Source of the DNA: a virus
Lineage: Duplodnaviria > Heunggongvirae > Uroviricota > Caudoviricetes
Direction: 5' to 3' (one strand)
Virus record (IMG/VR): IMGVR_UViG_2724679293_000007
Span: 34,885-98,884 of that record
DNA: 64,000 nucleotides
The notes below the pieces were generated by a model. The model did no database searches. It had not been told where the DNA came from and saw only the letters and a program-made list of their open reading frames with translations. This document shows, one piece after another, positions 27,479 through 35,096 of the stretch. Numbering within the stretch: the first letter of the stretch is position 1; each line of letters begins with the position of its first letter. The position numbers and the translations under genes are program-made.

Positions 27479-27528
27479 TAGATTGCTCTAATCTGGAGTC
27501 ACCTGGCGTTTTCAGTTTGAGGTCGGAG

Positions 27529-27774
27529 ATGCAATCTGATTTTTTACAGTTAGCGATCGCTTTTGCAGGATATGTTTGTATTGGCTTCTGTGTATACATG
27601 ATCAGCCGAAAAATGCTTGTCGATATCGACCGCAAAGAACGAGCAGAGGAGATCTTAGTATGGATTTTCTTTGGCGCGGTCTGGCCATTAGGGATCATGT
27701 TTGCTGCAACATTTCTTCTGATGTGGATATTCACCCTTCCAGGTGATTTCTATAGAAAAAAAGCCAGACATTGA
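27529..27774 (+). CDS. small two-TM membrane protein
   Basis: Internal ATG with GGAG RBS inside track ORF 27448..27774. Confidence 0.45.
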   Translation: MQSDFLQLAIAFAGYVCIGFCVYMISRKMLVDIDRKERAEEILVWIFFGAVWPLGIMFAATFLLMWIFTLPGDFYRKKARH

Positions 27775-27897
27775 TACAATCGTTGCGGGTGCTTGAGGCT
27801 ATCTGCTTCAGGCATGACCCGAAAAGCAGATAGAAGAAAGCCCCAGATAACATTACGCGTCCTGCAAGACGCTTAACATTAATCTGAGGCCATATCT

Positions 27898-28104
27898 ATG
27901 CTTAGCATACGTAGATTAGCCTCTTACCGACCAAAAGGTCAAGGAGAAGCAGGCTATGAAGCAGCAAAAAGCGATGTTAATCGCTCTGATCGTCATCTGT
28001 TTAACCGTCATTGTGACGGCACTGGTAACGAGGAAAGACCTCTGCGAGGTACGAATCCGAACCGGCCAGACGGAGGTCACTGTCTTCACAGCCTACGAAT
28101 CTGA
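27898..28104 (+). CDS. mok-like overlapping frame of the hok locus
   Basis: 68-aa ORF overlapping hok in another frame, as in hok/mok/sok loci. Confidence 0.4.
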   Translation: MLSIRRLASYRPKGQGEAGYEAAKSDVNRSDRHLFNRHCDGTGNEERPLRGTNPNRPDGGHCLHSLRI

Positions 28105-28111
28105 AAGGTAA
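27956..28111 (+). CDS. hok: Hok/Gef-family type I toxin (51 aa)
   Basis: Own translation MKQQKAMLIALIVICLTVIVTALVTRKDLCEVRIRTGQTEVTVFTAYESER matches the Hok/Gef signature (TM helix, LTRKxLCE(I/V)R, AYES); missed by the 60-aa track cutoff. Confidence 0.9.
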   Translation: MKQQKAMLIALIVICLTVIVTALVTRKDLCEVRIRTGQTEVTVFTAYESER

Positions 28112-28411
28112 GAGACCTGGCGGGGAGTGATCCCCGCCACTCTTCGTGTGTCTGGTAACCTCAATGCACCCTTTTCTCCCCAATAGTGTAAAACACAATG
28201 AAGTAGAAGGAGTTATTTCACATCATGCAAAGATTCAGACCATATCTCCCAATAGCCTTCGCGACATGATGACTTTCAGAAATATCTAGCTGTTAACAAA
28301 ATTCCATACTTGCTTTGCTAATACCACCTAGATTATATATGGAAAAATACACCTAAAACTTAAACAAATTATATCCACAACAAACATCCATCTATTAGGA
28401 TTAAAATTAAT

Positions 28412-28439
28412 TTAATAATAAATAATACAACACCGGTTC
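28412..28439 (-). terminator. rho-independent terminator of the MazG-like gene
   Basis: On the minus strand: caccggttt-N11-aaaccggtg followed by a T-rich tract. Confidence 0.5.
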
Positions 28440-28465
28440 ATTTTCTAACAAACCGGTGGGCACCA

Positions 28466-29458
28466 TTATTGGAATAACTTACTGATTACATTAAAAACAT
28501 TAAGGGCGTTACTTGCCACACTAGACATCTTGGCTGAATTTTTTTCGATTGAGTCAAGAACACTTTCGACTTCCGATAAAGTTCTTCTGCTATCTGCATC
28601 TTTTCCTGAGTCTATCGCATCTTTAATTGCAGATATAGCAGACTCTAAATTCTCCTTAAACTCACCTGTCGTCTCATCCTTCAAGAGAAGTTCTAACTCT
28701 TGTTTAAGTTTTTCCAATGATGCTCTTTTCTCATCAGTTTTACTAATCTTCCCTGAATAACTGACACAAACACATTCTCTTTTATTGCAGACAGGACAAC
28801 CATTTAGATAATAACTTTCAAACGCCTCGCCAAGATCATCATCTTTAAAAATAATCCCCCATAAAGAAAACAACCAAGCATATATATCAGCACACTCTTC
28901 ATGAAGATTTTCTTTGTTGTAATTTTTATCTTCAATTGATTTAGCATAAGCCTCTTGCAACTCACCCAACTCTTCGAATAACCTGGATGAATGATAAAAC
29001 CCACCAAAAGTAGACCAAATGGTTCTATTCGACGGATAGATATCATTAATCATTCGTGGCGCATAAGGCGGAAATTGCATAGGTTTAATAGCGTTATATT
29101 TATTGAAAAGCTCATCTTTAATTCCTTTTGCGCTTCTTATTTTCTCTGGCTTTCTGTGTGTTTGAGAACAGGAACAAGGCGCCCCTAAGCAATAAGGACA
29201 GCAACTAGGGAATTTTTTATAAAATGCTTCCTGTGGTTGTATTTCAAGTTTATCACAGATTGCAAAAAGCCAAGACAATGCTTCTATATAGGTATTTTTT
29301 AATAATTCTTTATCCTGATTACCATCACGAATAAACTCACGTGTTAAATAAGCTGTTTTCCTTGTCAGATAAGAGTACATATACTCAAATGATTTTTCTT
29401 CATTTTTTTTGCTGTAAATACCTACAATAATATTGCTCATATCATTGATACGTAACAT
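28466..29458 (-). CDS. tandem MazG-like (all-alpha NTP pyrophosphohydrolase-like) protein with two Cys clusters and acidic coiled-coil C-terminus
   Basis: Start at internal ATG with AAGAGGA RBS; second module has the EExxE...EExxD signature (FEELGELQEAY...HEECADIYAWLF); both modules end in CPxC...CxC; AT-rich with its own terminator. Confidence 0.7.
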   Translation of the reverse strand: MLRINDMSNIIVGIYSKKNEEKSFEYMYSYLTRKTAYLTREFIRDGNQDKELLKNTYIEALSWLFAICDKLEIQPQEAFYKKFPSCCPYCLGAPCSCSQTHRKPEKIRSAKGIKDELFNKYNAIKPMQFPPYAPRMINDIYPSNRTIWSTFGGFYHSSRLFEELGELQEAYAKSIEDKNYNKENLHEECADIYAWLFSLWGIIFKDDDLGEAFESYYLNGCPVCNKRECVCVSYSGKISKTDEKRASLEKLKQELELLLKDETTGEFKENLESAISAIKDAIDSGKDADSRRTLSEVESVLDSIEKNSAKMSSVASNALNVFNVISKLFQ

Positions 29459-29755
29459 GACATTCCTCTTAAATAAGCCAATACTTCCTAGAACCATATA
29501 TGCTTCGACAAAGATTAACGGACATCTTGCCTTCACAAACTTTGACGCTACATAAATTTAACCATGTGCATACTAAATATTTAAGGTAGAAAAGTATAGG
29601 AGTATTTATTAATAGGTAACTGTTAGTTTACACTCACTTCATACCAGAGTATTTACAAGATGTTATTTTACTCTATTCGCTAGGCGGTGGAATGCGGTTG
29701 TATCAAGGGGAGGTAAACCTCCCCCGAAGAAGATTAAAAGTACAAGGGATAACAC

Positions 29756-30265
29756 TTAATCCCACTCAATCCAGTTGTAGACGATACGAAGTGACGGGCG
29801 CACAGCGGCAGTCACATCTTCGGTACTAAAGTCGATTGCATCACTGTAGATTTTGCAGTCCAACATTTCAATTGTTGTAGCAGCTTTTGTCACAGCGTTA
29901 ACCCCGGAAGATTTGGATTCAGGGGTAGCAGCCATCGTGATATCAACATAGTCCTTCGCCGCAATGCGATCTTTAATGAACTGAAGAATATCGCCTTCGA
30001 TAGTCTCCACGCACTGGACCTGGATTTCCCCAGAGTTTCGAATTGGACCGTGCTGATTGAACTTCACACCATTCGGACCATAGTCCTCCACATCCTCGCG
30101 GGTCATTTCAGGAATTTGCGACGTGCGAACCAGTACGCTGATATCTTCATGGCCTGCAAAAGTGAGCTGGAATTCAGAAGATACCAGTCGTTCGCCTTTG
30201 GCCGCGTTGGCAGTATAGCGGCCCTTAATAAATTTACGGTTTCCCTTAGTGTTATTGTGCCCCAT
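29756..30265 (-). CDS. tail structural protein (tube-like)
   Basis: 169-aa ORF at the start of the minus-strand virion block. Confidence 0.5.
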   Translation of the reverse strand: MGHNNTKGNRKFIKGRYTANAAKGERLVSSEFQLTFAGHEDISVLVRTSQIPEMTREDVEDYGPNGVKFNQHGPIRNSGEIQVQCVETIEGDILQFIKDRIAAKDYVDITMAATPESKSSGVNAVTKAATTIEMLDCKIYSDAIDFSTEDVTAAVRPSLRIVYNWIEWD

Positions 30266-30276
30266 ATAAAATCCTT

Positions 30277-30858
30277 TTACTGGAACGCCCGAACAATATC
30301 GGAGCTGTTATATATCGAAGAACCGGTCAACTGGAGGTTGACGGTGTTTTTCAGGAAATGCCCATTGCTGTCCCTGGGTGCATCGAGATCGAAACTTATG
30401 TCCTGGATAGCGACATCAATGATGTTGATCCGGCGACCAATGTTTAGCGTCACACGCTCCGGGATTCGACCACCAATACTGGCATCTTTAAGTTCCGGGC
30501 TAATCATCGCTGACAATGCGGCGATAGCTCCTGAAACCTCCGTGAATGGGTCAAACAAAGCGATGAAAGTTACTGGCAGCGTGAAAGTCGGCGGTGTTCC
30601 CCCCTCCCAAACCATTAAGCTGTTCCAACGGGCCACCGACGTTGTTTCAGTACCAACCTGCGCAAAACCACTGAAAGCACCAGCAACAGACCCCATGGAC
30701 ATACCGGTAAACGGCGCTTCCCAATTCTGGGCCATGTTCATTGCTGCCCCCTGGCTGATATATCCGGTAACCTGGTACTGAGAGTTCGTTAAAGTAACTT
30801 TCAGAAATGGCGATACACCATCAGCCTGGCTGTAAACCCCATAAGGTATAGGTGCCAT
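30277..30858 (-). CDS. virion structural protein
   Basis: 193-aa ORF, tightly packed with neighbours. Confidence 0.5.
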   Translation of the reverse strand: MAPIPYGVYSQADGVSPFLKVTLTNSQYQVTGYISQGAAMNMAQNWEAPFTGMSMGSVAGAFSGFAQVGTETTSVARWNSLMVWEGGTPPTFTLPVTFIALFDPFTEVSGAIAALSAMISPELKDASIGGRIPERVTLNIGRRINIIDVAIQDISFDLDAPRDSNGHFLKNTVNLQLTGSSIYNSSDIVRAFQ

Positions 30859-33368: not shown

Positions 33369-35096
33369 TTACTCAGAGTCACCGGCATCAATCGTGTCGC
33401 CGCTTATGAAGTTAAGCCCGCCTTTTTTGGCCATTGTCAGCGTTACACGAGTGAAGTAATCAGCGCCGTTGCGTGGGTGCATATCGTTGATAGCCGAACC
33501 CCACAGTGTGGTACGGTTGACCAGCGCCGGAGTGGTCGGATGCTGGAACGGGATAGCCGGGACAGCATCACCAGTCACGAAGCCTGCTTTACCCGGATTT
33601 TCATCACGGACGTAGCACAGCACATCCATCGAGCTGAACTGAATGTTCTCTGTCGTTAAGTTCTTACAAATACCAGCAGGTACTTCGTACACTTTCACGT
33701 TACCGAACAGGGTACCGATGTAGTGAACATACGGAGTCTGGATATAGTCTTCGGCTGGCTGGAAGAAATCCTTCGGCAACTGTTTGAAGAAAGATGCTGC
33801 ATCAGCACCAGCAAACATCCCCATCGCACCAGAAGATTTAACGCGCTCAATAATGTCGCGATATACAGTCTGGAATTTGCCACGAATGATGGTTGCCCAT
33901 ACATCAAAGGACTGGTTAACCGGCAGAGCGATGTCAAAGGTGTCGGTCGCAAGAGTACGCCAGATCATGATGCGAAGACGCAGCATATCCTGTTCATGAG
34001 ACAGGTATTCCTTCAGGGTGCGGAACTGTAGGGAACCCAGGTCCAGACCAAATTCACGCTGTGCTTCATACGCCGCCTGTACCGTGTGCTCAGCCGCGAT
34101 AACGAACTGGCTTGGGAACAGGGTGTATTTCTTCATTTCGTGGTTGATCAGCGGGATCAGCTCAGGAGCGGCTTCAATATTGATTTCCGTCTCAATTGCG
34201 ATCTCAGTGCCTTTATCCGGCGCTTTGGAGAACGACAGGGCAATCTGACCAATGTTGTAGTTCAGAGAGCAGGTAACAGTGATTTGCTCACCAGCAGCAT
34301 TAGTAAACGAGTGAAGTAGGCTGCCGGAACCGTTATCAACAACAGACTTAATACGGTTAACGTAGATGTTAGTGCGACCTTTTCGGATTGGTACATTCTG
34401 GCCTTCGAAGTCTTCCATCTTGAAGGTTGCGGTTTTGCTGGTGCCATCGGAGCTTGCCACCAGCACATAGCGGCGGCGTAACTGGCTGTACACACCGACG
34501 GATTGCATGTCCAGAACATCACCAGCAGCATAAGAACCAAAAGAGGAACCTGCCACGTTAAAGACTTCATAGATGTCGGACTGGTCACGCGTAACCGGAA
34601 TGAAGGTACACGCATCAGCGGTAGCTGCCCCCAACTGAACAGGCAGGATCATCGCGAGGAATAAAGGCAGACGCATAACACCGTCAGAAACGCTCATCAT
34701 CTCTGCTGCGACGGATTCCAGCATCGCTTTATTAGTGGCATCCATGCTATTGCGGGTGGACTCAATCAGGCAGTTTTCCAGCGTCTGGTGGCAGGAGGCC
34801 AGAATTTCCGGACGCGGCATAGATTTATGTGCTGCGGCGTAGTCAGCCAGTGCACTTGCCCACGCGGTAGCAATTTGAGCGGTGGCATTATCAGAGATAC
34901 CCGCAAAAATTGGGTCTTTACGTGCAGCTTCAAGGATAGATGCGGCACGCGCGGCATCATCTTTGATGAATTGGTTATCAGTACCGAACTGTGCTGTACT
35001 TGCCCAGCCAAGAACGGCTTTAGAGCGTTTTGCGATATCTGCAATACGATTCTGGTATTCGCGTAAGTTACTCAAGTTACTCTTCCTTAAACACAA
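33369..35096 (-). CDS. major head protein (P1 gene 23 position); start codon uncertain (TTG in track)
   Basis: 575-aa ORF adjacent to parS as in P1; followed by a hairpin. Confidence 0.55.
   Translation of the reverse strand: MCLRKSNLSNLREYQNRIADIAKRSKAVLGWASTAQFGTDNQFIKDDAARAASILEAARKDPIFAGISDNATAQIATAWASALADYAAAHKSMPRPEILASCHQTLENCLIESTRNSMDATNKAMLESVAAEMMSVSDGVMRLPLFLAMILPVQLGAATADACTFIPVTRDQSDIYEVFNVAGSSFGSYAAGDVLDMQSVGVYSQLRRRYVLVASSDGTSKTATFKMEDFEGQNVPIRKGRTNIYVNRIKSVVDNGSGSLLHSFTNAAGEQITVTCSLNYNIGQIALSFSKAPDKGTEIAIETEINIEAAPELIPLINHEMKKYTLFPSQFVIAAEHTVQAAYEAQREFGLDLGSLQFRTLKEYLSHEQDMLRLRIMIWRTLATDTFDIALPVNQSFDVWATIIRGKFQTVYRDIIERVKSSGAMGMFAGADAASFFKQLPKDFFQPAEDYIQTPYVHYIGTLFGNVKVYEVPAGICKNLTTENIQFSSMDVLCYVRDENPGKAGFVTGDAVPAIPFQHPTTPALVNRTTLWGSAINDMHPRNGADYFTRVTLTMAKKGGLNFISGDTIDAGDSE

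Follow-up and report, generated by a model that had tools for sequence, protein, structure and literature searches.

A mobile tandem MazG-like gene carried by a P1-like phage-plasmid, with a possible role in nucleotide-based conflict

The region described here lies in a 64,000-nucleotide stretch of virus DNA (positions 34,885 to 98,884 of IMG/VR record IMGVR_UViG_2724679293_000007; hereafter the window, to which positions refer unless another locus is named). BLAST of positions 27800-30300 identified the window as a P1-like (IncY) phage-plasmid of Escherichia coli. Its subject is a minus-strand gene for a 330-residue tandem MazG-like protein, flanked on one side by the plus-strand genes kilA, repL, a small hypothetical open reading frame (ORF) and hokD, and on the other by the minus-strand genes bplB, pmgG, gene 21 and the sheath gene (Table 1). 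An earlier examination of the letters alone (the sequence-only reading) had placed this gene in an AT-rich islet with its own terminator, given it an ATG start supported by a ribosome-binding site, and proposed that it was a single-gene accessory function inserted between the hok locus and the tail genes. The ORF is present as described, and the RefSeq record with the same coding sequence, WP_000944483.1, carries the label 'MazG-like family protein'.

The limits of the islet were set by comparison with a P1 relative that does not contain it (L002). Since L002 is collinear with the window up to 28183 and again from 29723, the MazG-like gene sits in a 1,539-bp insert, whose neighbours are hokD and bplB and whose GC content is 34.0%, compared with 49.0% in the flanks. 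The AT-rich islet and the accessory insert of the sequence-only reading are thus both borne out, and the segment between the hok/sok locus and bplB is horizontally acquired. No direct or inverted repeats were found at the insert ends, so transposition is not indicated. Rfam detected no RNA family inside the insert, only sok in the adjoining hok locus, and the non-coding stretch on the hok side of the gene contained neither an ORF nor an RNA family and did not resemble a partner gene found in a sister clade (described below).

The distribution of the gene was assessed across related elements and genomes. It occurs together with hok in 17 of 708 matching plasmids and is present in 19 of 5,426 complete E. 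coli genomes, where every copy is plasmid-borne and at least 99.6% identical and no chromosomal copy was found. Copies with 76-79% identity occupy the S/V tail-gene slot of P2-like prophages (L010:8001-8990, also L011 and L057-L059). Because the non-coding DNA flanking these copies is unrelated to the flanks in the P1 insert, only the coding sequence has moved between phage backbones. In Providencia, a 57% identical copy is found where a P2-like prophage ends, and copies with 53-56% identity are located in a lambdoid prophage early region, next to an integrase of the P2 type, or within a small islet of the chromosome. Together, the AT-rich insert, the low frequency among plasmids and genomes, and the prophage-slot relatives establish the gene as mobile, rare accessory cargo of temperate phages.

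The repL-bplB interval itself (27479-29755) is a variable cargo site among P1-like elements. P1 carries rlfA (DUF3800), rlfB and pmgF there, and RCS47 carries a transposase gene and an unrelated 198-residue ORF; many P1-like elements have hok/sok alone, and a few have hok with the MazG-like gene. An IS421 element is also present in this region of some plasmids. In the window, an intact hok/sok type I toxin-antitoxin locus adjoins the insert and converges on the MazG-like gene. Accessory cargo is thus carried at two sites, repL-bplB in P1-like elements and the slot between S and V in P2-like prophages.

Expression of the gene was considered from its flanking signals. The start methionine is at an equivalent position in all 28 homologue clusters, a ribosome-binding site (AAGAGGA) precedes the ATG by 5 nt, and at the nucleotide level the similarity to the P2-prophage copies reaches no further than 12 nt upstream of it. 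Downstream, the hairpin proper (28431..28458) of an intrinsic-terminator-like element has a folding energy of -20.7 kcal/mol (z = -4.9), which none of 200 shuffled sequences equalled, in agreement with the terminator proposed earlier. The AT-rich region upstream of the gene, where its promoter is presumed to lie, is not conserved in the P2-prophage copies. A sigma-70 consensus scan returned five sites against 6.4 expected, none of them convincing in this region. At the bplB-proximal edge of the insert (29704-29726, minus strand) is a strong 8-bp GC hairpin (GGGGGAGG-UUUA-CCUCCCCU), which replaces the AAAAGCTCCC...GGAGCTTT bidirectional terminator of insert-less relatives. As this hairpin has no U-tract after bplB, some read-through from the tail operon is possible. 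The transcription unit proposed for the gene in the sequence-only reading is therefore supported at its terminator end but not by a separate promoter.

Table 1 Features of the MazG-like gene, its insert and related loci.
Feature	Position	Strand	Remarks
sok RNA	27787-27961	+	Rfam, 113.9 bits
hokD coding sequence	27956-28111	+	
AT-rich insert, 1,539 bp	28184..29722	.	L002, the P1 relative without the insert, is homologous up to 28183 and from 29723 onward
Non-coding AT-rich stretch, 282 bp	28184-28465		Hok side of the gene
Intrinsic-terminator-like hairpin with T-rich tail	28421..28458	-	8 nt past the stop codon
Coding sequence of the 330-residue tandem MazG-like protein, stop included	28466..29458	-	Identical to WP_000944483.1
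C-terminal helical tail, residues 236-330	28469..28753	-	Four predicted helices, isoelectric point 5.0
Module 2, residues 136-235	28754..29053	-	MazG-type, intact metal-binding signature
Cys cluster 2, CPVCNKRECVC	28766..28798	-	C221, C224, C229, C231; putative Zn site
Acidic motif EECAD, residues 187-191	28886..28900	-	E188, D191
Acidic motif EELGELQE	28952..28975	-	E162, E163, E166, E169
Basic linker, residues 101-135	29054..29158	-	Isoelectric point 10.2; model confidence (pLDDT) dips to 58 in residues 101-110
Module 1, residues 1-100	29159..29458	-	MazG-type, without acidic metal ligands; A2 profile positions 7-83 match 1vmg
Cys cluster 1, CPYCLGAPCSC	29168..29200	-	C87, C90, C95, C97; putative Zn site
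AT-rich upstream non-coding region	29459..29722	-	Presumed promoter region
Ribosome-binding site AAGAGGA	29464..29470	-	5 nt before the ATG
Two-transmembrane partner genes of the sister clade	L008:9080-9826, L012:9077-9823, L066:9069-9806, L007:9281-9805, L061:5187-5918		

The protein had been described from its sequence as two homologous modules, the first degenerate and the second with the EExxE...EExxD metal-binding signature of MazG-type enzymes, followed by an acidic coiled-coil tail. The modules are indeed homologous to each other (hhalign of residues 42-99 against 174-233: probability 94%, E = 9e-8). In module 2, EELGE (162-166) and EECAD (187-191) are invariant in 28 close homologues. 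Across 175 diverse relatives, at most 50% identical to each other, E162, E163, E166, E188 and D191 are conserved at 93-96%, and E169 at about 72%; the signature, which reads EExxE...ExxD, is thus intact. In module 1, the equivalent sites hold T56, E59 and otherwise non-acidic residues, while Y15, N19 and W63 are conserved. Because module 1 does not have the acidic metal-binding residues, one active site is predicted per chain.

Each module ends in a cysteine motif, KFPxxCPYCxxxPCxC in module 1 and CPVCxxxxCxC in module 2. Among the relatives aligned at these positions, the cysteines are present in 155-157 of 157-158 for cluster 1 and in 168-169 of 168-169 for cluster 2. The clusters are absent from the solved MazG proteins aligned and are a family-specific addition, as suspected when the gene was first noticed. 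By this measure of conservation (93-96% for the acids and about 100% for the cysteines), both the predicted active-site acids and the cysteines are under selection. The AlphaFold2 model has a predicted local distance difference test (pLDDT) score of 82 and a predicted template modelling (pTM) score of 0.70, and the tail helices score about 60-79. Of the earlier description of the tail, the helical part stands; its acidity is mild, with 18 D+E residues against 15 K+R.

A MazG-type enzyme is expected to adopt a four-helix, all-alpha domain, and this fold is predicted for the window protein. When the single sequence was scanned against Pfam, NCBIfam, PHROGs and PADLOC, all matches were sub-threshold or at chance level. 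The best were phrog_2245 'NTP pyrophosphohydrolase' (E = 3.5e-6) and Pfam MazG (14.7 bits), and the single PADLOC hit, LmuB, was a chance-level coiled-coil match (E = 0.015). Because these library scans were weak, family profiles were needed: A1, built from the 28 close full-length homologues, and A2, built from 63 diverse members. With A2, module 1 (profile positions 7-83) matched Sulfolobus SSO3215 (1vmg; E = 3.6e-12) and module 2 matched 2q73 (2.2e-6), 2q5z (2.9e-6), 5ie9 (4.4e-5) and 2gta (1.4e-3), and with A1, module 2 matched 1vmg (9.7e-5). Foldseek against the PDB and BFVD returned no match with E <= 0.001, and its top lists consisted mainly of dimeric dUTPases, E. coli MazG and phage nucleoside triphosphate (NTP) pyrophosphatases, all at weak E-values. 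Some relatives pass the threshold of the Pfam MazG family PF03819 (P0160, 38.2 bits; P0158, 29.1; P0142, 27.1), and P0011 and P0016 were already annotated with it. The MazG-like identity proposed earlier is thus upheld by the profile and structure comparisons. Taken together, the profile matches to both modules, the module homology and the Foldseek lists indicate that two MazG-type four-helix domains make up the core as a pseudo-dimer within one chain. The predicted fold, the profile matches and the motif place the protein in the all-alpha NTP pyrophosphohydrolase superfamily. A structural role in the virion, considered for its tail-gene neighbours, was rejected, since P1 and most relatives do not carry the gene and the predicted fold is that of an enzyme.

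The wider family was assessed by two kinds of search. A word-indexed search yielded 28 full-length homologue clusters (32-100% identity), to which the broad alignment A2 added only four further proteins. An exhaustive profile search retrieved 992 representatives at 50% identity (E <= 1e-3), 100 of them with E <= 1e-30. The family is thus sizeable, with about 1,000 clusters at 50% identity across bacteria and archaea; its reference-genome loci are in Pseudomonas, Aliivibrio, Chloroflexota, Acidobacteriota, Bacteroidota, Planctomycetota, Patescibacteria, Alpha- and Betaproteobacteria and one Woesearchaeote. Three architectures were observed: the core only (~225 residues), the core with the tail (~330-350 residues; the commonest, and that of the window protein), and the core, with or without the tail, joined to another domain. 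The fused domains are TIR (at either end), CAP12/Pycsar-type TIR, N-terminal cytidine/dCMP deaminase, N-terminal Ser/Thr kinase, C-terminal GGDEF, CHAT protease and PNP-type phosphorylase. The tail is kept between the core and a C-terminal TIR domain. One MazG-TIR relative (P0172) matches the PADLOC candidate system PDC-S35 (E = 1.6e-44), and in the kinase fusions the kinase part is matched by the PADLOC models for the PD-T4-6 and mad6 kinases. Judged by these architectures, the family recombines with immune-type domains.

These observations bear on what the gene does for its carrier. With about even confidence, we favor the view that it is a conflict gene acting on nucleotides, most probably in defence of the lysogen against superinfecting phages. 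The gene would be expressed from the resident P1-like prophage and act in phage-phage or phage-host conflict. Module 2 is predicted to bind a nucleoside triphosphate or related nucleotide and to cleave it to the monophosphate and pyrophosphate. By analogy with the partner subunit in MazG and dimeric dUTPase dimers, module 1 would supply the second half of the substrate pocket. The cysteine clusters putatively bind Zn and may stabilise or regulate the fold, and the tail is predicted to mediate oligomerisation. Protection would then come from the removal of nucleotides that superinfecting phages need, either canonical deoxynucleoside triphosphates (dNTPs) or phage-specific ones, and in the fused relatives the same core would be coupled to TIR, CHAT, PNP, deaminase or kinase effector domains.

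The combination of one core with mutually exclusive output domains at either end could also be explained if the core were a non-catalytic or self-limiting nucleotide sensor or adaptor. Such a core would bind a nucleotide cue made during infection and switch an output, namely the fused domain in relatives and, in the window protein, the helical tail or an unlinked partner. The core is indeed placed like the sensor domains of GGDEF proteins and PD-T4-6-like kinases, and a minority core-plus-tail subclade together with one TIR fusion (P0139) has replaced the acids (e.g. REKNDD) while keeping every cysteine. However, each catalytic acid is kept in the window protein and in about 94% of relatives, which argues for turnover, core-only proteins exist without an output domain, and this insert contains no partner gene. 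We therefore consider a sensor or adaptor unlikely, even with the membrane-protein partner that a sister clade provides.

That partner was observed throughout the 53-56% identical clade, in which the MazG-like gene is always followed by a gene for a ~245-residue protein with an N-terminal transmembrane helix, a central coiled coil and a C-terminal transmembrane helix (Table 1). The partner has no match in Pfam or PADLOC. Neither the window nor the 57-79% identical relatives have it, and tblastn found no remnant of it in the window. In the 53-56% clade, the two genes resemble a paired system whose effector is a membrane protein. The description of the gene as an orphan consequently applies to the window but not to the sister clade.

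Across the 35 genomic loci compared, no neighbour family was common to more than three, and only clade-specific partners were found. In the 33 loci with neighbour ORFs, PADLOC nevertheless gave strong matches within three genes of the MazG-like gene: restriction-modification genes of types I, IIG and III, a DRT reverse transcriptase, PD-T4-6, PDC-S13, PDC-S66 and TIR proteins, reported here as occurrences. A 49% identical relative (P0020) adjoins a 1,234-residue RVT_1 protein (L068:588-4292), which may be a defence-associated reverse transcriptase. The earlier proposal of a defence or anti-defence function is thus reinforced by the fusions (GGDEF included), the prophage slots and the defence neighbours. 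Of the two directions, defence is favored because the fused domains are weapons, because chromosomes of diverse phyla carry many of the relatives outside any prophage, and because the sister clade has a membrane partner.

Other neighbours suggest metabolism instead. Some distant relatives lie beside thymidylate kinase or ribonucleotide reductase genes. Two core-plus-tail relatives, P0132 (L064:3779-4846) and P0176 (L065:8001-9053), are located between a tmk-holB-metG operon and a second thymidylate-kinase paralogue. In two Chloroflexota loci (L039 and L043), a gene of ~208 residues follows 16-22 nt downstream and probably accounts for the thymidylate-kinase match that occurred twice in the neighbour set. 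House-cleaning is the classical function of MazG-family enzymes, and the window gene could accordingly encode a house-cleaning or dUTPase-like nucleotide-pool enzyme that serves the element's own DNA replication and has no role in conflict. The best structural match, to dimeric dUTPases, and the proximity of the lytic replicon repL are both consistent with this. In contrast, the gene is rare and dispensable, as P1 and about 98% of related plasmids do without it; its base composition is foreign, its relatives carry immune-type fusions, and the tmk-adjacent relative that was scored, P0132, belongs to the acid-less subclade (REKNDD, with all eight cysteines and the tail kept). A purely house-cleaning role is thus very unlikely.

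The opposite direction of conflict was also considered. As a counter-defence or pro-phage enzyme, the protein would hydrolyse (p)ppGpp or another alarmone, or else a nucleotide that signals in immunity, and blunt abortive infection by the host, helping the P1-like element to replicate or to keep its host alive. A precedent is Atd1, a phage MazG-like pyrophosphatase that depletes the (p)ppGpp pool and cancels the toxicity of TIR-STING and retron-TIR (PMC10419184). Like Atd1, the window gene is phage-borne; it lies directly downstream of the tail genes on the same strand, where read-through from late transcription past the bplB hairpin is possible, and the catalytic signature of module 2 is intact. 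However, its relatives are fused to weapons, not antidotes (TIR, CHAT, PNP, deaminase and defence-type kinase domains), many of those relatives are chromosomal and outside prophages, and the sister clade pairs the gene with a two-transmembrane protein. Furthermore, Atd1 is described as a single catalytic MazG domain, and no nucleotidyltransferase (NTase) or other anti-defence gene is found among the neighbours here. On balance, we regard counter-defence as rather unlikely.

Several observations weigh against defence by nucleotide hydrolysis as well. A sensor domain, too, typically shows an unchanging core combined with different effectors, and because the acid-less subclade keeps the cysteine clusters and the tail, hydrolysis is not the sole conserved property of the family. 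The window protein falls below the 22-bit gathering threshold of Pfam MazG (PF03819; 14.7 bits, E = 0.037) and matches none of the PADLOC-DB v2 system models. Housekeeping genes are numerous among the neighbours of distant relatives. No trigger or regulator is evident, though an enzyme that freely degrades dNTPs would be toxic. The phage MazG-like Atd1 works in the opposite sense, as an anti-defence gene (PMC10419184), and the literature searched contains no experimental data on any member of this family.

A broader possibility, which is speculative and about as improbable as the sensor, is that the tandem MazG-zinc-cluster core is an unrecognised, widespread immune module. The core would recognise infection-specific NTPs. 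In the stand-alone prophage form, it would selectively and non-abortively destroy a competitor phage's non-canonical dNTPs, such as hydroxymethyl-dCTP, dUTP or other modified precursors, leaving the host and the unmodified P1-like element unharmed. In the fusion proteins, recognition of this kind would instead set off the attached TIR, CHAT, PNP, kinase or deaminase effector.

Neither MazG-type enzymes nor immunity by nucleotide depletion are new, and it is in the combination of features that the window protein differs. No description of a tandem Cys-cluster MazG family, or of this P1 cargo gene, was found in the literature searched, coverage of which was incomplete. What is new relative to that literature is the predicted presence in one chain of one live and one dead MazG domain, two invariant four-cysteine clusters and a helical tail. 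PDC-S35 is not mentioned in the same literature. A MazG domain is among the unvalidated predictions of DefensePredictor, where it has a MazG-C kinase partner, and WP_000944483 was absent from the DefensePredictor supplements searched. In rare PUA-HAD systems, a MazG-like domain replaces calcineurin-CE.

Compared with characterised enzymes, the small MazG-type NTP pyrophosphatases (SSO3215/1vmg, 2q73, 2q5z, Bacillus subtilis YpjD 2gta and 5ie9) are single domains of ~95-120 residues that form homo-oligomers, whereas the window protein has two fused domains, one of them predicted to be catalytically degenerate, and adds a CPxC-x4-CxC cluster per domain and a 95-residue helical tail. Dimeric dUTPases (staphylococcal phage Dut, 5myd; Campylobacter jejuni, 1w2y) share structural likeness at only 6-8% sequence identity, and they do not have the cysteine clusters or the tail. 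E. coli MazG (3cra) likewise has two MazG domains in one polypeptide, but it is a weak Foldseek match (E = 4.2), and the window gene differs in its extra cysteine clusters and tail, in having no mazEF/relA context, and in its mobile AT-rich insert. With this evidence, its strictly plasmid-borne occurrence and a GC content of 34%, an orthologue of the chromosomal E. coli MazG was ruled out.

Among systems of conflict, Atd1 is alike in being a phage-borne MazG-type enzyme that acts between phage and host through nucleotide hydrolysis, an activity that is predicted from sequence for the window protein. Atd1, however, is a single catalytic domain of a lytic phage, encoded beside NTase anti-defence genes and working against defence. 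By comparison with its description, the window family has tandem modules, cysteine clusters and a tail, is fused to TIR and other effectors, and is located on prophages and chromosomes, and the neighbours in the window are hokD, repL and bplB, with no NTase. If the window gene does act in counter-defence, it would extend the Atd1 precedent to temperate elements.

For the favored defence of the lysogen, the closest parallels are dCTP deaminase/AvcD and the dGTPase defences, which share the proposed logic of starving an invader of nucleotides, and the relatives with an N-terminal cytidine/dCMP deaminase are analogous to kinase-deaminase defence proteins. In contrast to these nucleotide-depleting defences, the Pfam scan found neither a deaminase nor an HD or TIR domain in the window protein, which also matches no PADLOC model. 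Because it is encoded by a compact, ~1-kb single gene on a well-studied phage-plasmid backbone, its role can be tested directly with phage panels and nucleotide assays, and the E. coli gene is thus a tractable entry point to a sizeable, immune-associated MazG family. If defence is its function, the gene would add a MazG-based mechanism to those already known to provide immunity by nucleotide depletion.

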